Shown one piece after another: positions 4,338 to 29,836 of a stretch of DNA of 64,000 bases. The notes under the pieces are model-generated. The model did no database searches and was not told the DNA's origin. It saw only the letters and a list, made by a program, of their open reading frames with translations. The stretch lies in assembly GCA_000092065.1 (NCBI GenBank), contig CP000587.1; one strand, 5' to 3'. The translations under genes were made by a program, and so were the position numbers. The first letter of the stretch is position 1, and every line of letters begins with the position of its first letter. This DNA comes from Ostreococcus lucimarinus. Lineage: Eukaryota.

Positions 4338-7300
4338 TCAGGGGGGCGCGACGTCGGCGGCGAGCGGGACGCGCGCGCGGGCGTCGGACCAAATCGCGTC
4401 TGCGCTCTTGTTTGCCGCGGAATTTGATTTCCTGCACGCGACTTTGACTGTTTTTAGCCGCGCGTTGTTTCGATCGAACTCGCGCTCGACGCGTGTCGCG
4501 CGCGAGCGAATCGCCTCTAGAACCTTGAGCGCGGTGTCCACGCCGACGTTGGCCTCGCGCACTTCGCCCATGATGTCGCTCAGGCGTGTCTCCGCGGCTT
4601 CGAGCTGCGCTTTGAGCGAGCTCACCTTGCGTTCGCGACGCTCGGCGTTGCTCGTTTTCGTTTTGTGCTTGCGCTTGGCGATTTCCCACATGCGCAACGC
4701 CGCGGATTCCGCCGCCGACGCGTGCACGACTTTGTGCGACGTCATCGTCGCTTGCTCTTCTGTACTGAGCATTAAGCTCCGCATCTTGTTCTTGTTCGCT
4801 TCAATCTTTTCCAGTCGTTCGCGCTCGAACGGGGTCAGCACGTTCGTGATCTCGTCGCGCATCTTTTCCCACTCGACGCGTAAACCCGGGAAGTGCTTGC
4901 TGAGAATCTTTTGTTCCTTTTGCCGCCGCTCGCGACACGGTTCCCAGTTACACGGACACCCGAGTCCGTGAAGCTTACCACCGCTCTGAAGAAACTCATT
5001 TGTTCGTTCTTCTCTCTCACGGATCTCGCTGTACTCATCCACCCGCGTGCTTTGATTCGCCAGAGCGCCGTCGAGCGGCGTCAGAGACTCTTGCTCGTCG
5101 ACGGCTTCGACAGAGGATCCCGCGCGCGTTTCCGCAGCGTACACGCCGACGGGGCCTTTCGTGCCCTCAACTTTTGACGCAACTAAAACTGTATTTGTCT
5201 CCGCCTTGGCTACTGAAAACGCAGCGATTTCTGTCTTCGTCAGCGGAGTGCTGCAGCCCATCGGAAACGAATCGCGGCACTGCCAAACCTTGGATTTGCG
5301 CGCCTTTAACATTTGATCAAACGGAATCTCGCGCCATCGGTCGCAGACATCGCATGCGATCCAACTGTCGCGATAGTCTTCGCACGCCACTCGGTGAAGC
5401 CGGGTGGTGAGTTCGATGAACGGCGGGCTTTTCACGAATTTGCCGTCGACGGGAATGTTAAACTCGCCGGCGGCGTGGAATTCGTCGTGAAAGCGGCTAT
5501 AAATATCAGCCTGTTGCGGATGCGTTGGGGACACGATGCAAAACACACAAATCCCGAATCCTATCGGACAGTTCGAATAGTCTTTGAACTGCACCGCCTT
5601 GCGCCGCAGGTGAATGCGAGGAAAAGGCAGAAGGCGTTGGAAGTAGCTCGTGTCGGTAGAGTTTCGGCACACGAGGATGATGCCAGGGCAATGTTCCCAC
5701 TCCACTTCGTTGATCGCTCGATTGATAAACCGCCATTGCACCTGGGCTTCGTATGGAGGGTTCACCAAGACGTGATAACCTGCCCACGGGTTAGACATCT
5801 TCAGTCCATCGTCCTTCTTGTCGTAACATTTTTCTGCGGGAATGTTTGGCCTGAGATGCGAATTCGTGCACGGGTCGAGTAAACCTTTGATGAGCGGCGC
5901 TTCAATCGTAGGGAGATCGAGTCCAAACACTTTACACGCGCCGTGAACTATCCAATCTGGCGTTAATCCGACTTTCATCGACTCCAGCGCTTGTACATTT
6001 GCCTTGTTCGTCGCCTCGGCGTCCGACTCTTCGTCGCTCGACGAACTCGCATCCGATGTCGACCACGGATCGGACCATTCTTCAACTTCGGCCGCATCTG
6101 CGCACCGAAGCGCCTTCAGCGCGCTCCCACGTGATTTTCGTCTCGATGCGGACTCGTTATACCATAGTAGCATACCTTCGCGGTACGAAGATTGCCTTTG
6201 GGCGTCGTACGGCGCTAAATCTTCCTTGGACGCCCACTCAAAGCAGTTGCTACCGAATAACTTGACGAGAGCCAAACTGCCCTCGGGTTTGATGTCAAGA
6301 AGATCGTACGCGTTTGCGCACTGTCGAAGCTTCCACGTGCGACCGGGCCACCACTGTCCTTTGTGGGTCGAGCGCAATCGCACCCAAACAATCATACCGG
6401 GTGGGAATTCCGTCAACTCGGCGTCTCGGCGCTTGATAAAACGCGAATCCGGCCGGCGCTCTCGCCTGGGCTTTTGTGTGTTCGCCGCTCCACTCTGCAC
6501 CGATGACGGTGTCGTCGTCGCGGCCTTTTTCGGCGTCTTCGTGACTTTTTTAGTGTATTTGCTCTTAGGAGCGAGCGAGCCAGCGGAGCTCTGGTCCGGT
6601 ATCGGCGTCATCGGCGCCGGCGTCGCCGGCTCATCTACTACGCAGTCGGTCGATCCCGCCGCGCGCGCGCCAACTTTATCCTTTATCGTTGCCGGCGCGC
6701 TCCTCGTCGCCTCGTCCCCATCCATCGCCGGGACATCGACGCTCAACCCCATCGTCCTCGTCTTCGCCGGCGCCCGCCCCCCGCGCGGCGTCTCCCCAAC
6801 CGTCGCCGGCGCCGACTTTTCCATCCGTTTCGATCCCGCGTCCGACCTCTCCGCGCCGACCGCGATCGCTCGCGCCCTCATTTCTCCGCCCACCGCCGCC
6901 TCGCCGCGTCCATCACCCCCCCCCCGCGCCCGCTTCGTTCCGCTCGGCGTTCGCTCGCCGCGCTCGCGCTCGGCGCGTCGCCGCCTGCACGCTCGACTCT
7001 GCGCGTTCTTCTTCGCCCTCGCCAGCTCCCGCGCCGTCGCGCCGTCGTCATCGCGCGTCGTCGTCGTCACCGCGACCGCGTCGTCGTCGTCGCGCGTCCG
7101 CGCGCGCCCTCCCGAGCGCACGGCGACGCGCTGCGTCGGCCAGTGGAGGCGAAACGCGCGCGAGGGCGCGACGCCATCGGCGTCGTCGCGCGGCGCGCGC
7201 GCGCCCGCGGGCGGTCTCGACGCGCGAGACGCGCGGCCGTTGAGCTCGGCGTTGAGCGCGCGCGCGAGTTCGACGCTCGCGAGGTCGTCGGGCGACGCGC

Positions 7301-23881: not shown

Positions 23882-25048
23882 ATGTTCGCCTCGCGCGCGC
23901 GCTCGATCGCGCGCGCGTTCACCCGCGCGCGCGCGCTCATCGCGCTCGCGTGCGTCGCGCGCGTCGCGCTCGCGCGCGCCGACGAAACGGCGCAAGATGT
24001 CGACGCGCACGCGACGTGGCTCCGACGCGAATTGCCGCGGTATCGCGCGCGCGCGGCGTCGTGCGTCGCGTGCCAGCGCGTGCTCGCGCACTTTGACGAA
24101 CACCTCGTGCTCGCGCTTCAAGACATCACGAACGCGGAGCGACGGAAGGCGACGAGCGCGACGGGGGAAAGGCGATTCGACGCGGCGCGGTACGGCGCGT
24201 ACGAGAGCGTCATCGAAGAGGCGGTGCCGCGAGCGTGCGCGACGACGAGCGTGGCGTTGAATCGAACGCTGCGCGTCGCGTGCGAGAGGATGATCGAAAG
24301 AAGCGAGGATGAGGTGGTGAAGTTGTATTACGAGGTCGGGAAGGCTATGGAAAGAGGAGAGAAGGAAGCGGATTTGGGGGAGGCGCTGTGCGGGGCGAAC
24401 GGCGCGATGGGCGGCGCGTGCGAGGACGCGGAGACGGCGGCGTGGACGGTGTCGGAGTTGGAGGCGCTGGAGACGGCGGCGATGAAGGTTTCGAGGGAAG
24501 ACTTGAATCCGTGGGACACCGCGCCGGGACACGAGGGCGAGTTCCTGAGCGAGCCCGAGTACGCGGCGCCGAAGAAGGGGGAGGTGGCCAGAATCGTTGC
24601 GTCGGATTTTTATAAGCGCATCATTTTGGAGAGAGACATCGACGCGGTGGTGTACTTTTCGTATCCGACGAAGGCCAAGGAGTTTCACGAGGCGTATGAG
24701 CAGACGCACGCGCTTCTCGCCGAAGTCCTGGAGGATGCGAAAGATTTGATCATCGCCCAAATAGACGTCGAGAAGAACGACGTGCCACCTCCGTACGCCG
24801 ACATGGCGACGACGCCGTGCGTGCTGTTGTACCGGGCGAAAAAGAAGGAGAACCCGAGATGGGTCCCCTTGCGCACGGAGGCGGGAGAGTACATCACGGG
24901 CGAGTCTGCGCCCACACTCGCAGACGTGTTGACCATGGTGAGCAAGAACGCAAAAACAAAGAAGACAAAACGCGAAGCCGACAAAGCCTTGGTCGAGGCC
25001 TCGGCGGAGGAATTGCACTCGAATCGCGCGAAGGATGATGAACTGTAG
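23882..25048 (+). CDS. Putative ER-lumenal protein with a signal peptide, a saposin-like Cys pattern, a thioredoxin-fold-like C-terminal domain without CxxC, and a C-terminal DDEL retention motif
   Basis: A hydrophobic N-terminus (ALIALACVARVALARA) is followed by paired cysteines (CVACQRV...C...C). The C-terminal part (VVYFSYPTKAKEFHEAYEQTHALLAEVLEDAKDLIIAQIDVEKND...TTPCVLLY) resembles a PDI b-type/ERp29-like fold. The protein ends ...RAKDDEL. Confidence 0.4.
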   Translation: MFASRARSIARAFTRARALIALACVARVALARADETAQDVDAHATWLRRELPRYRARAASCVACQRVLAHFDEHLVLALQDITNAERRKATSATGERRFDAARYGAYESVIEEAVPRACATTSVALNRTLRVACERMIERSEDEVVKLYYEVGKAMERGEKEADLGEALCGANGAMGGACEDAETAAWTVSELEALETAAMKVSREDLNPWDTAPGHEGEFLSEPEYAAPKKGEVARIVASDFYKRIILERDIDAVVYFSYPTKAKEFHEAYEQTHALLAEVLEDAKDLIIAQIDVEKNDVPPPYADMATTPCVLLYRAKKKENPRWVPLRTEAGEYITGESAPTLADVLTMVSKNAKTKKTKREADKALVEASAEELHSNRAKDDEL

Positions 25049-25402
25049 AACTGTATTTTAATTGCATACATGTGCTGGCGGTGTGTAGCCGCGTTCAAGC
25101 AAGAACGGTAGGATGAACTCGCAAAACGTGTTCCATGTCGTGGAAGTCGAAATCGATTGTCCGCGCGAGATTCCCGTCGTGTCGGCAGCGTACGTGATGG
25201 AAGATTCGACCAACGCACGTCTTGGCTCGTTGGTCGCCGCGTGTGCGAGCGTGCAAAGCGCACAAATTACGGCGAGTCTTAATTGCAATTGCGTGGACAT
25301 GAAACGCGCGCGTGGAATTGAGACCTGGCCTCGGCGCCCCAAACATTCACATGACGTTCGTTTGCGCGATAGTTTGGATCAATTGACAAATTATTTTAAT
25401 GT

Positions 25403-27731
25403 TTAAACAAGCGCCGATGCACGGCACTGCGCGTGCGCGTTTAATGCAGTTTGAGCCTGCTCAACCTCGGCTCGTGAACGAACGCTATGTGCCCATTCGG
25501 TGACGGAAGTCGCCGCTTTCGTACCCTCCGCGGCGCTCGCAAGCGACTTCGCCGCGTGCATCAATTCTCCGTTTGCTAAGTGAGTTTCCGCCTTGGCGAT
25601 GGCGCCTTCAATACCCTGCGCGCCTTCGTCGGATGTATCCTTCACGCGAAGCAGTGAAGCGGCGTACGCTAAACCGTGCGCTAACATACCGCCACCGTCT
25701 TGCGGAACCAACGACAACTTTCTCGCCGTGTCCCGAACGCGTTCCAGCTGTTCCGCCAATTGCAAGCGCGTGGGAACGCCTCGCTTTGCCATATCTTGAT
25801 CCAAGCCTTGAATGATGGTGGCGATGAACGGATCCTTTTTTGCGCACGTGTTGAGCAGCGCTAGTGCGTCTTCGAAGGCTTCGCCGTTCTCCACGCGAGA
25901 TCCGAAATCCATGACGGCGAGCTCAAAGCTTTGCACTGCGTGCGCTCGCTCGAGCGCTTCGCGGCGCTTCGTCAGCACTTGTCTCAAAGCTCCCATGCGG
26001 ATGCGCTCTTCATCTAGCGCCTTGATTCGCTCGATGCGTTCAGCGACCAGAAAGTCTGCGTGCTCTGCTTTCAATTTTTTCTCTTGCGTCTTCAGAGCGC
26101 GTTCTTTATCGACGACGGCGCGCTCCTTTTCTCTTTCGAGTTGACGAGAGGCGTCCTCGGCGCGCTGCTCCAAGACGTTGATCGCAGCGATGAGCTCGTC
26201 CGTAACCGATCGCTCGGCACTGACGACAGTTTCGAAGTTTTGAACCATCGACGAGGATAACTCGCTGAAAATTTTCATGTCGGATTCGGATTGAACCTTC
26301 ATGCCGTCCCTTAACGCCGCCTTTTCGTCGTCGCTCAGAGTTTCTCCGAGTGTTTTGACGGCTTCTTCGAGCAGCCGCGCCGCGCTCAGAGATTTCGAAG
26401 CGTTCATAATGCTGACATTTTCTCGCGCGGGCGGTTTCGGTACGTTCACTTTCGCGAGCACTTCAGGTTCCTTTTGATCCGGTTCGTCTTGCGGCACCTG
26501 CGAGCGAAAGACGCGCCGTCAGTACGAGTAAATCTTCGAGTTAATTGCGAATGAAAGATGTCGGCTGGCTCACAGGAACGAGGCGAGGTAAAGCCACGAG
26601 CCTTAGAACTCCAGCGGCGCTTGACGCGCGGTTTGCATGCGTGCGCGCCAAGCTAGCATTTAATGTTGGCCCTTGATAGGTCCGGCGCGGCACCGAGAAG
26701 CCGCGACAGATGAGTATAAGGCCCCGAGAATAAGCGTCACAAAAATACGAAATGTTGCGTACCTCTACGTTGGCGAGGAAGTCCGCGGTCGCGCTGAACG
26801 CGTCCGACAGTTCATCTTTCGCCGTTTCTTTGCCATCCTTCTTCGACTCGGTTGTGGCTTTCTTCGAGTTCGTCAACTCTTTCGCGTCGGGCTGCTTGAC
26901 GATTTCGATTTGCACCTCGACGTCTTTCCGCGCCGCCGCCGCCTTTGGTTTCGCCCGTCGCGGCGGCGGAGGCCTATCTTCCTCGTCCACGACGCTCATG
27001 GAATACGCTAAAAGCGCCGCGATCCCAGCACCGGCGGCGGCTAGAAGCGCCGTGCGATTCGACCCGCTTTCCTCCGTCGGCGTCGCGTTCGCCGCCGCGG
27101 GCGGCGCCGTCGCCGCCGCGCCCGCCGGCTTCGATAACGGCTCCCTCAACACCGTCCCTTTCGTCGCCATCGACTTCGCCTCCGCCAACACCGATTCATG
27201 CAGCGGAAACGTCGCCGCCTTCGCGTGCGGCATCACCCTATTGCCGCTCGTCGGCGGCGGCGCCGCCGTCGCCCGCGCCCGCGCCGTCGCCCGCGCCGCC
27301 GCCGTCGCGTCCCCCATCGTCGCCTTATACGTCCTCGGATCCCCCAACACCGATTCATGCAGCGGAAATTTCTTCGCCGCCGCGTGCGGCACCGCGCGAA
27401 TCTTCCCGATCGGCGGTTTCTTCTTCCTCGACGTCTTCGCCTTCGCCGGCGCCGCGCGCGCCGTCCCCGTCCCCGTCTTCGCCTTCGCCCGCCCCTTTCC
27501 ACCGCCCCTCGCCGTCGCCGTCGCCGCGCCATCCCCCGACGTCGACTTCGTCGTCGTTTTCGTCGTTTTCGTCGCGTATCCGCGTCCGAGCGCGTCCGCG
27601 CGCGCCGCGCGCGTCGCCGACGCCGCGATCCACGCCCGCGCGGTCGTCCCCACGGACGCGCTCGCGCCGCTCCCTCGCGCCGCCATCGCGTCGAGCGCCG
27701 CCGCGCACGCGCGCGCGCGACGCGTCGTCAT
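25403..27731 (-). CDS. MIC60: MICOS complex subunit MIC60 (mitofilin), two exons (26763..27731 and 25403..26497) joined across a 265-nt intron
   Basis: Exon 2 ends with a mitofilin C-terminal domain (AKAETHLANGELMHAAKSLASAAEGT...VTEWAHSVRSRAEVEQAQTALNAHA) that matches the human IMMT C-terminus pattern. Exon 1 supplies a presequence, one TM helix (ALLAAAGAGIAALLAYSMSVV) and a Lys-rich region. The exons are joined by GAG|GTACGC ... TACTGAC-N21-CAG|GTG in phase 0. Confidence 0.65.
26498..26762 (-). other. Spliceosomal intron of MIC60 (GT-AG, 265 nt, ACTGAC branch-like motif 21 nt upstream of the acceptor)
   Basis: Donor gag|gtacgcaac on the minus strand (plus 26762-26761). Acceptor ctttcgctcgcag|gtgccgcaagac (AG at plus 26499-26498). 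The in-ORF sequence between them (RNISYFCDAYSRGLILICRG...) is AT-richer and has no coding character. Confidence 0.6.
27187..27400. repeat. Diverged tandem duplication (period ~159 bp = 53 codons) inside MIC60 exon 1
   Basis: The core caacaccgattcatgcagcggaaa occurs at 27187-27210 and again at 27346-27369. On the minus strand this encodes the repeated peptide (V/M)PHA(A/K)A(K/T)(K/F)PLHESVL. Confidence 0.7.
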
Positions 27732-27863
27732 CCCGCGCGCGCGCTCGGGCGTCCGCGCGCGCGACGACGCGATGCGCGACGCGCTGTGCCGTCGCGCGCG
27801 CGACGACGCGCGTCGCCGTCACTTCCGCGCGCGACCCGACGTCGCGCCGGCGACGCGCGCGCG

Positions 27864-28631
27864 ATGTCGACGCCCCGGGCGAGCGTCGCGGCGTTGACCG
27901 CGCCCGCGCGCGTCGGCGCGCGCGCCGCGAGCGCGCGCGGGCGCGACGCGACGCCGTTTCGTCGCGCCGCCGCCGCCCCGCGACGACGCGCGGCGACGGT
28001 CGTCGCCATGGCGCACCCGCGGCGCGTGCAAAAGGTCCAGCAGCAGATGCGACGAGAGATTTCGAGCATGATGCAGAGCGATAAGAACCTGCGAGCGATG
28101 ATCTCGCCCGAGGAACGCATGGGGGTGGATCACATGCTGAGCGTCATGGCGACGGTGGCGGACGTCGAGGTGAGCAACGATTTGCAAGTGGTCAAGGTGT
28201 ACGTGAGCATCCTGGGAGACGAGCGAGGGAAGAATAACGCGATAAAGGGGATGAAACGAATGGAGCAGTACGTGCGAAGGAAGATCGGACGGAGGATGAG
28301 CTTGCGGTTGACGCCGGAGATTCGGTTCATTTACGACGACTCGTTCGAGCGAGGGCAAAAGGTGAGCGCGTTGTTGGATGAGATTCGTTTGGAGAATAGG
28401 AATAAGACGGCGAAAAAGTACGGGAAGGACGCGTTGATGTCGGTGGAGGACGTGATCGCGGAACGGGGGGAAGTGGAGGATGAAGATGAGTCGGAATGGG
28501 GGATGGACGACGACGCGGTGTGGGACGAGATGCTGGACGGCGTCGAGGACGCGTTGAATGACTTTGACGACGACGACGAAGACGACGAAGACGACGAAGA
28601 CGATGAGTCCATTCGCATCATCGACGTGTAA
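27864..28631 (+). CDS. RBFA: Ribosome-binding factor A, organellar type (plastid-like presequence), with an acidic C-terminal tail
   Basis: RbfA core: RRVQKVQQQMRREISSMMQSDKNLRAMISPEERMGVDHMLSVMATVADVEVSNDLQVVKVYVSILGDERGKNNAIKGMKRMEQYVRRKIGRRMSLRLTPEIRFIYDDSFERG. I refined the start to the ATG at 27864 (MSTPRASVAALTAP...). The tail is DDDEDDEDDEDDE. TGTAA overlaps the stop. Confidence 0.8.
   Translation: MSTPRASVAALTAPARVGARAASARGRDATPFRRAAAAPRRRAATVVAMAHPRRVQKVQQQMRREISSMMQSDKNLRAMISPEERMGVDHMLSVMATVADVEVSNDLQVVKVYVSILGDERGKNNAIKGMKRMEQYVRRKIGRRMSLRLTPEIRFIYDDSFERGQKVSALLDEIRLENRNKTAKKYGKDALMSVEDVIAERGEVEDEDESEWGMDDDAVWDEMLDGVEDALNDFDDDDEDDEDDEDDESIRIIDV
28627..28631 (+). promoter_or_regulatory. 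TGTAA overlapping the RbfA stop codon (gacgTGTAAatttaatta)
   Basis: The stop TAA at 28629-28631 is embedded in TGTAA and followed by an A/T-rich stretch. Confidence 0.4.
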
Positions 28632-28690
28632 ATTTAATTATTAGTTGAGAGACTGGTGTTTTAATTCTACTGCTATTTTTCCACTTTGCC

Positions 28691-29836
28691 TCACAGCGTC
28701 GACAACACGTTTTGCGCCTTCGACGCCAGGATCTTCACAGCCTCCTTGAAAATCGTGCCGGGCGCCATCTGCCCGATCGTTTCGATGGTAAAAATGAAGT
28801 GGTCCTTACGTTTGCGCACGGCAATCTTATCCGCCCACCCTGGTTCACCCGTAAGCTCGCGCACGCGCTCGACGCAAAAGTCGCACCCGCGCGACTCGAC
28901 CACCTTGACCGTCTTTTTATCACCCTTTCCTTCGCACGCGTAACACTTGTGCGTCTCGCTAAAGTTTGCACACTTTTTCATGAACTCATCCGCGTCCGCG
29001 CCCGTGATGGGCTCTAAAATCGTAATCTCCGGCACCATCTTGTACCAACACGTGCCCACGGGCGACCACTTCGCGTGCTCCTGTCCGATGCCCTTGACGC
29101 AGTGGCATTCGAGTTCCACCTCTTGACCGGGCGCGAGTTTCACGAGCAAAATATCGTCGTGCACGCATCCAAGCTCTTGATCGCCGACGACTTCCTTCTG
29201 TGAGCGCTTAAAATCGGAATACTTTGCCCCGTTCTCCTCCGGAAGCTGACTCCCCTCCGGACACCACGTCAACGCGTTCGAGTACACCGACCGATTCACA
29301 ACCTCACCGAGCGTGCCGTCGGGATTCCGTTCCTTATGACACCGCACGTGCATCTTCAGCACGATCGTATTCGTCTCGTTCGCCGCGTCACCCTCCCCTC
29401 GATACTCAAACATCGCCGGATCCGCCTTAATCGGCACCAAACCGAGTCGATGCGCGAAAACCTCGTCCGCGACGACGCTCGTATTATTCACCACGAACAC
29501 CTTCTCAATCGCCATCGTCGGCACCTCACTGAGTATGATCCTCCGAAACGCGTTCGCAAACGCCGGCGAGCACCCCTCGAGCTCGAACACGCACCGCTCC
29601 TCGTCGCTCGTCGTCAGCGTCAGCGCGAACGTCTCTCGAAACCGCTCCGCGCTGAACGCGAAATCCTTCCCCACGCTCGCGTACGCCCCCCCGTACGCCA
29701 CCTCGTTCACGTTCGCGTTGTGCTCCGCTCCCGCGCGCACGTAGTGCCTCTGCTCTTCCAATCGCTCGAGCATCCGTCGCATCTGCGCCGAGACGTCGTC
29801 GTCGCGCGTCGCGCGCGCCGCCGCCGCCTTGCCCAT
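28691..29836 (-). CDS. RPAC1: DNA-directed RNA polymerases I and III subunit RPAC1 (AC40)
   Basis: ANAFRRIILSEVPTMAIEKVFVVNNTSVVADEVFAHRLGLVPI is near-identical to the RPAC1/POLR1C signature. The RPB3-like dimerisation fold holds along the full length. Confidence 0.8.
   Translation of the reverse strand: MGKAAAARATRDDDVSAQMRRMLERLEEQRHYVRAGAEHNANVNEVAYGGAYASVGKDFAFSAERFRETFALTLTTSDEERCVFELEGCSPAFANAFRRIILSEVPTMAIEKVFVVNNTSVVADEVFAHRLGLVPIKADPAMFEYRGEGDAANETNTIVLKMHVRCHKERNPDGTLGEVVNRSVYSNALTWCPEGSQLPEENGAKYSDFKRSQKEVVGDQELGCVHDDILLVKLAPGQEVELECHCVKGIGQEHAKWSPVGTCWYKMVPEITILEPITGADADEFMKKCANFSETHKCYACEGKGDKKTVKVVESRGCDFCVERVRELTGEPGWADKIAVRKRKDHFIFTIETIGQMAPGTIFKEAVKILASKAQNVLSTL

Follow-up and report, generated by a model that had tools for sequence, protein, structure and literature searches.

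A two-exon MIC60 gene in Ostreococcus lucimarinus and a probable snoRNA-like RNA in its conserved intron

Positions 25403 to 27731 of a 64,000-nt stretch of Ostreococcus lucimarinus CCE9901 DNA (GenBank contig CP000587.1; the whole stretch is called the window) in all likelihood form a nuclear MIC60 gene of two exons and one 265-nt intron, whose core resembles an H/ACA-type small nucleolar RNA (snoRNA). Coordinates are those of the window, and MIC60 is read on the minus strand. We are confident that the core, about 170 nt long, is a functional structured RNA; that it belongs to the H/ACA class is probable, with less certainty. The MIC60 finding itself is ordinary, and what is added is a corrected gene model together with a probable new intronic snoRNA-like RNA.

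An earlier reading of this DNA, made from its letters alone (the sequence-only reading), had joined two open reading frames (ORFs), 26541..27731 and 25403..26497, into one MIC60 gene across a 265-nt GT-AG intron. The coordinates, the conserved splice signals and intronless single-ORF orthologs bear this out. The intron is laid out as GAG|GTACGC ... TACTGAC-N(20)-CAG|G, with the junction in frame. Its donor GAG|GTACGC at 26762 was found as described there, as were the TACTGAC (A at 26519) 21 nt before the acceptor CAG at 26498 and the phase 0 junction at which this acceptor abuts GTG CCG CAA; exon 2 begins at 26497 and exon 1 comprises 323 codons (Table 1). The proposed splicing stood and the product is 687 amino acids (aa) long, the earlier figure of about 688 having included the stop codon. 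G+C content is 0.55 in the intron, 0.70 in exon 1 and 0.56 in exon 2; the last ~70 codons of the upstream ORF, which had been called AT-rich, are so when compared with exon 1 and not when compared with exon 2.

The comparison set comprised 30 loci, the window and 29 that were fetched through their encoded proteins and through a DNA pattern of the core. They represent six intron-bearing lineages, to which two intronless lineages were added. In all six the donor stands directly after ...FLxxxE, each has a CAG acceptor, and the acceptor AG is preceded at 19-30 nt by CTGAC or CTAAC (CTRAC). The introns measure 246, 257, 265, 278, 301 and 317/319/320 nt, and all three residues modulo 3 occur. The 317-, 319- and 320-nt introns are found within one population (L002, L008, L016, L027) of metagenome contigs, which differ by small indels in a T-rich tract about 40-60 nt past the donor, in the 5' flank of the intron and outside the RNA core. 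The intronless orthologs P0008 (707 aa) and P0099 (792 aa), one from each of two lineages, are single ORFs collinear with the spliced products. The ortholog alignment that the sequence-only reading had proposed as a check thus came out in its favour: the spliced window protein is collinear with both, and the N-terminal part is not a separate gene there. P0099 came from an ortholog-profile protein search that was aimed at MIC60 of Micromonas and Bathycoccus and returned only Ostreococcus-like proteins.

A peptide shared by the run-on translations of several orthologs pointed to conserved DNA in the intron. Between the window and the other lineages, DNA identity was 85-89% in the intron core, 67-72% in exon 2, 56-64% in the last 300 nt of exon 1 and 44-59% in the intron flanks, which are essentially unalignable. 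The core is the best-conserved DNA of the whole MIC60 locus and is under stronger purifying selection than the exons. The last ~70 codons of the upstream ORF had been dismissed as frame noise, and that description failed, as they cover this most conserved region. The core was found once per locus and only in the MIC60 intron at 30 of 30 loci. Its 13 distinct sequences fall into five groups; the cores of the 317-320-nt population and of the lineage with the 301-nt intron, which is counted separately among the six, belong together in one of them. At five alignment columns of the core, indels of one nucleotide shift the reading frame between lineages. The RNA is present in all six intron-bearing lineages and absent around both intronless genes, for which 12.6 kb (L153) and 22 kb (L154) were fetched. 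A search of viral contigs with the core pattern gave none.

The consensus structure computed with RNAalifold has three hairpins, arranged as hairpin 1, an ACAUUA hinge, hairpins 2 and 3, and ACA followed by 3 nt. Hairpin 1 encloses a pocket with the near-invariant strands (U)AUACUCA and CCU(A/U)UCA(A/C), the top of which lies 14 nt from the H box. Conservation stops abruptly 1-3 nt after the ACA and at the foot of hairpin 1. In the consensus, 98.6% of alignment cells were in standard pairs, against 35-40% when the partners were slid. Four pairs showed compensatory changes: three (U-A to C-G and similar) in hairpin 2, in which 100% of cells were paired, and one (G-C to A-U) in the upper stem of hairpin 3. 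None of 500 shuffles reached the observed covariation score or percentage paired, although these pairing controls are not proof, the structure having been derived from the same, related sequences. The fold z-score was -2.5 in sense and -1.1 in antisense orientation. The better sense score and the presence of invariant G.U pairs place the RNA on the gene strand.

The known snoRNAs of O. tauri provide the closest comparison. In that species 72 of 131 snoRNAs are intronic (Bousquet et al. 2020, PMC7671301), and its H/ACA snoRNAs are 140-205 nt long, with a hinge of the form ...AACAUUAA... or ...ACAUCAA... and a 3' end ACAUUU, ACAUUC or ACAUCU (PMC7671301). The MIC60 core likewise lies in sense orientation in the intron of a protein gene, has an ACAUYAA hinge and a predicted ACAUUC/ACAUCU end, falls within the same size range and has internal-loop pockets with invariant strands. 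It differs by an additional hairpin in the middle, whose 13-nt loop is invariant, and its host gene is mitochondrial and not one of ribosome biogenesis. When the 131 published O. tauri snoRNA sequences were searched with 17 core substrings and by host-gene names, the core was absent, and the sole substring match was the unrelated Ot-HAsno23. The O. tauri screen dropped candidates "mapping on or close to CDS regions" (coding sequences, CDS; PMC7671301), and we infer that the core is missing from that survey because it is annotated there as a CDS exon and was filtered out.

Several observations weigh against a spliced MIC60 gene with an H/ACA-type core. The number of hairpins is three and not the canonical two, the additional one being the middle hairpin with its invariant loop ACGCAUGCAAACC. 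In the lineage of L010 and L029 the H box is imperfect (AAAUUG). Compensatory changes are absent from hairpin 1, where variation is limited to G.U-compatible substitutions and a few mismatches, and the 3' strand of its pocket reads CCUAUCAA in O. lucimarinus as against CCUUUCAC, which is unexpected for the guide of a conserved site. In hairpin 3 the spacing between pocket and ACA, measured with the upper stem as predicted, is only 12-13 nt, short of the canonical 14-16 nt. Rfam 15 gave no match on the locus at E<=10 and none in the whole window at gathering thresholds, and no target site of at least 9 bp was found in the O. tauri U1, U2, U4, U5 and U6 RNAs. On the protein side, the spliced 687-aa sequence had no exact match in a collection of 15 billion proteins, and a 148-aa fragment spanning the junction retrieved from the protein collection only exon-2 ORFs and no junction-spanning protein.

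Among the six RNAs scanned for targets, the only match of at least 9 bp was an unconvincing, non-canonical 6+3 bp site in the U3 snoRNA. The ribosomal RNA scan used 120 eukaryotic ribosomal DNA (rDNA) stretches that occur as contaminants in bacterial and archaeal assemblies, none of them from Ostreococcus; two matches in the viral collection were fragmentary. In this set the best match to hairpin 1 was the 18S sequence GARAGG-UC-UGGGUA (6+6 bp), a weak, non-conserved site in a variable region of few loci, and the guide variant of O. lucimarinus weakens it further. The loops of hairpins 2 and 3 and the hinge matched rDNA only over short, G.U-rich stretches. As to the contaminants themselves, more than 120 contigs from species-representative assemblies of bacteria and archaea (L033-L152; Streptomyces, Collinsella, metagenome-assembled Saccharibacteria and others) carry an exact 29-nt motif that is specific to eukaryotic 18S rRNA. 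These contigs represent eukaryotic rDNA contamination, and about 27 of them bear a chlorophyte or plant signature. Locus L092 was considered as Mamiellales rDNA and rejected, as it has no chlorophyte signature.

Other RNA classes were considered and set aside. No C or D boxes, which a C/D box snoRNA would have, were seen by eye on either strand, and the core has no telomere template as a telomerase RNA would. RNAs of the snR30/U17 type have the motifs m1 (AUAUUCCUA) and m2 (AAACCAU). These are not in place in the core, and Rfam showed no match to SNORA73/snR30. The core nevertheless resembles snR30/U17-type RNAs, which act in processing without guiding modification, in combining an H/ACA frame with extra conserved elements; this is a resemblance only. 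A separate observation concerns Ot-HAsno66 (PMC7671301, Supplementary File 3), which contains CCCTAAACCTAAACC. This resembles a template for TTTAGGG, the telomere repeat of plant type, and Ot-HAsno66 may be a telomerase RNA candidate.

By the most likely mechanism, the MIC60 pre-mRNA would be spliced at 26762/26498, the lariat would be debranched, and exonucleases would trim the intron to a protein-protected core, the route described for the 72 intronic snoRNAs of O. tauri. As part of an H/ACA-type small nucleolar ribonucleoprotein, the core would work in trans, in pseudouridylation or in pre-rRNA processing, and the intron would be retained as the carrier of the RNA. A fuller proposal is that the genus has an uncatalogued RNA with an H/ACA frame and an extra hairpin, hidden by protein annotation, which is the reason for the survival of the intron in such highly compact genomes and which may be an orphan not engaged in ordinary rRNA pseudouridylation. 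We regard the chances of this proposal as evenly balanced. Under it, the RNA of the intronless lineages would either sit at another place or be gone; its absence from their MIC60 loci fits either joint loss or relocation.

In the first alternative, the core acts in cis on the MIC60 pre-mRNA, for example as an element that binds a protein or controls splicing, and no stable trans-acting snoRNA is made. Such an element would account for a single copy confined to the MIC60 intron, for target searches that gave none, for the conserved GUGAG within hairpin 3, which resembles a 5' splice site, and for three hairpins that match no Rfam family. We consider it unlikely all the same. Both the H box and the predicted ACA+3 end lie where an H/ACA RNA requires them and have the species-typical form, a trimmed stable RNA would account for the abrupt limits of conservation at the hairpin 1 foot and at ACA+3, and the intronless MIC60 orthologs manage without any such element.

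The next alternative concerns the donor and is found in the public annotation. Two neighbouring window proteins are exact sequences in the public collection, one being the O. lucimarinus CCE9901 protein XP_001418736.1 and the other belonging to the XP_001418965.1 cluster. The exon-2 ORF clusters with XP_001418964.1/UniProt A4S0F6, a protein of 735 aa named "MICOS complex subunit MIC60", and MIC60 of O. lucimarinus is therefore already annotated as one gene, with another donor. That the ORF track lists it as two entries is a product of prokaryote-style ORF calling and no discovery. On the minus strand, join(27686..26574, 26497..25403) reproduces the 735-aa protein exactly. This model starts at the in-frame ATG 27686 in place of ATG 27731 and uses a donor 189 nt deeper in the intron, so that 63 extra residues are translated; acceptor and exon 2 are unchanged. 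We think it very unlikely that this longer exon 1, the 76-nt intron and the 63-aa insertion in MIC60 are real. The extension is open and in frame in O. lucimarinus and in some members of the L002 group, and GTGAGC is an invariant sequence of good donor consensus. Yet the exon-1 frame runs into stops or out of frame before GTGAG in O. tauri, the L005 group, L006, L001, L016 and L027, and the 317-, 319- and 320-nt variants of a single population shift it. In the first half of the extension, the DNA is about 86% identical between species and the peptide is wholly different, because of 1-nt indels. The intronless orthologs have no insertion (P0099 reads FLAKVE-VPEEQ at the junction, where the spliced window product reads FLANVE-VPQDE), and the invariance of GUGAG is explained by its place in hairpin 3.

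The Pfam alignments point the same way. Residues 260-679 of the spliced protein align to positions 192-613 of the 614-position Mitofilin profile, across the exon junction, and the alignment also crosses the junction site in the intronless ortholog P0008. In the 735-aa model it is broken by the insertion and begins only past it. Together, the conserved donor, the free intron lengths, the stops, the intronless orthologs and the Pfam span argue, on comparative sequence grounds, that the 265-nt intron is the conserved solution. GTGAGC at 26573 is probably not a real donor and the 189-nt extension is very probably an artefact, translated because the core is GC-rich and by chance without stops there. 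The intron of the sequence-only reading is more accurate than that of the reference annotation.

In O. tauri the public model (713 aa, P0001) carries the name "myosin class II heavy chain" at NCBI and in UniRef, a misnomer for MIC60. It places a 156-nt exon between introns of 40 and 82 nt, a layout that reproduces the C-terminal 701 of its 713 residues, and it drops 44 N-terminal codons through a further annotated intron (L003 4001-6396, RCC1115, KZ155778.1). Both public models agree with the spliced model in gene, acceptor and exon 2, and differ from it by keeping part of the intron as coding, 189 nt in O. lucimarinus and 156 nt in O. tauri. The O. tauri layout amounts to a cassette coding exon (peptide "LICRGYQYRERTFHGPTLNAS...") in the core. 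That this model can be rebuilt from the DNA is the point in its favour; the frame-shifting indels at five core columns, stops in several lineages, a peptide that is not conserved at 85-89% DNA identity and the lack of a homologous peptide in the intronless orthologs make it highly improbable. Two separate genes, with 26541..27731 coding for an unknown repeat protein and 25403..26497 for a MIC60 truncated at its N-terminus, as prokaryote-style callers split them in all metagenome contigs, have a negligible chance, since single ORFs cover both parts in two intronless lineages, the second ORF does not begin with ATG and has neither targeting signal nor membrane anchor, and the Pfam alignment spans the junction.

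Table 1. Features of the MIC60 locus in window coordinates. All are on the minus strand.
Feature	Position	Strand	Details
MIC60 exon 1	26763..27731	-	969 nt, 323 codons; start ATG 27731; collinear with intronless orthologs
Codons of single hydrophobic segment	26991..27056	-	Residues ~226-247 (TALLAAAGAGIAALLAYSMSVV); Kyte-Doolittle
MIC60 intron	26498..26762	-	265 nt, phase 0, GT-AG spliceosomal
Donor GTACGC after GAG	26757..26762	-	Position common to six lineages (GAG|GTRNGY); G of GT at 26762
Conserved intronic RNA core	26556..26729	-	~170 nt; candidate H/ACA-type snoRNA; on MIC60 strand; recognised by DNA identity
Hairpin 1	26668..26723	-	Lower stem GGCC/GGCC; upper stem UCUG-CGCGGC/GCCGCG-CGGA
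H-box-like ACAUUA (ANANNA)	26661..26666	-	Single-stranded hinge; 11 of 13 distinct sequences fit (ACAUUA or AAAUUA)
Hairpin 2	26619..26653	-	11-bp stem; invariant 13-nt loop ACGCAUGCAAACC
Hairpin 3	26564..26615	-	Lower stem GCUGG/CCAGC; internal loops with invariant AGUUCUAAGG and CUGUGAG
GTGAGC, donor of public model (CCT|GTGAGC)	26568..26573	-	Inside hairpin 3; public intron 76 nt, 26573..26498
Invariant ACA	26559..26561	-	2 nt after hairpin 3 stem; predicted 3' end ACAUCU
Branch-site-like TACTGAC	26518..26524	-	A at 26519, 21 nt before 3' splice site
Acceptor CAG	26498..26500	-	First AG downstream of branch motif
MIC60 exon 2	25403..26497	-	364 codons and TAA (25405..25403); opens GTG CCG CAA; long-helix region and C-terminal mitofilin domain

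The spliced protein fits, as far as its sequence can be read, the plan of Mic60 proteins, which comprises a targeting sequence, a transmembrane anchor, a coiled coil and a mitofilin domain (PMC5460017). The product of exon 1 has an N-terminus that resembles a presequence, two copies of a PHxxAxKFPLHESVL motif, a single transmembrane helix and a linker rich in Lys and Glu, as well as Lys-rich stretches. Its first 60 residues are rich in Ala, Thr and Arg and hold 10 Lys and Arg against 2 Asp and Glu, by composition only. The 19-residue Kyte-Doolittle maximum is 1.85 at residues ~226-247, and every other window is at 1.3 or below. Exon 2 matches Pfam Mitofilin (PF09731, E=1.3e-37, profile positions 292-613 of 614). 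In a low-confidence AlphaFold2 model (pLDDT 60, the predicted local distance difference test score) exon 2 is all-helical, with helices at 56-140 and 144-203 (85 and 60 residues) followed by a bundle of shorter helices.

These data agree with the topology drawn by the sequence-only reading. It had assigned the mitofilin C-terminal domain to ORF 25403..26497, which is the ORF with the PF09731 match, and had held this ORF to lack the targeting signal and the membrane anchor, as it does. A presequence-like N-terminus, one transmembrane helix and a Lys-rich region come from the upstream ORF, as judged from composition and the Kyte-Doolittle profile, and the transmembrane prediction that it had suggested gave a single hydrophobic segment at ~226-247. 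The plan as a whole fits canonical MIC60. In Chaetomium Mic60 the soluble part begins at residue 208 (PMC5460017), and the transmembrane helix is far from the N-terminus in both that protein and the O. lucimarinus one, here by about 225 residues.

With known MIC60/mitofilin proteins (yeast Fcj1/Mic60, human IMMT and Chaetomium Mic60) the O. lucimarinus protein shares PF09731, a predicted long helical middle, one N-proximal transmembrane anchor and a basic N-terminus. In sequence it is only marginally similar to Mic60 proteins of solved structure (7pv1, E=0.13). Unlike them, it has about 225 residues before the transmembrane helix that contain PHxxAxKFPLHESVL twice. In the fuller form (R/N)(A/V)xPHAxAxxFPLHESVL, the motif lies at 27339-27410 and 27180-27248 on the minus strand (residues 108-131 and 162-184). 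No Pfam family matched the duplicated motif. Both copies are kept in the Ostreococcus-type orthologs that were inspected, including the intronless P0008, and P0099 has one degenerate copy. At L005 ~4400-4750 (P0010, P0017) an insertion of about 100 aa (YRVRQYRMVESRRYDEAALATADAG...FLEEFAAKAEGQ) lies between the PHxxAxKFPLHES repeats, and other lineages do not have it.

The corrected model bears on data derived from these genes. Translated intron probably makes up 63 residues of A4S0F6/XP_001418964.1 and 52 of the "myosin class II heavy chain" of O. tauri, and such protein models spread into UniProt, EukProt and orthology sets. A probable snoRNA-like gene lies beneath annotated CDS, in a type of locus that the O. 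tauri non-coding RNA (ncRNA) screen left out by design, and similar RNAs under annotated CDS may exist elsewhere. The co-occurrence of intron and RNA is perfect across the eight lineages, a small and clean example of what would be an ncRNA-carrier intron, kept in a strongly compacted genome.

The gene order RPAC1, RBFA, MIC60, an unnamed ORF of about 390 aa and CobW was found in the window (23882-29836) and at six loci fetched with their flanks (L002-L005, L007 and L154, the last from one of the intronless lineages). The downstream part was also present in L006 and L153. In the window, the product of the unnamed ORF has a thioredoxin domain. Loci whose flank extends far enough also have a DEAD/Helicase_C gene upstream. 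MIC60 (ATG 27731) and the divergent gene with the RBFA domain (ATG 27864) are separated by a 132-nt spacer, 27732-27863. G+C content reaches 0.81-0.86 in the 150-nt windows surrounding this spacer, which is presumably a shared bidirectional promoter.

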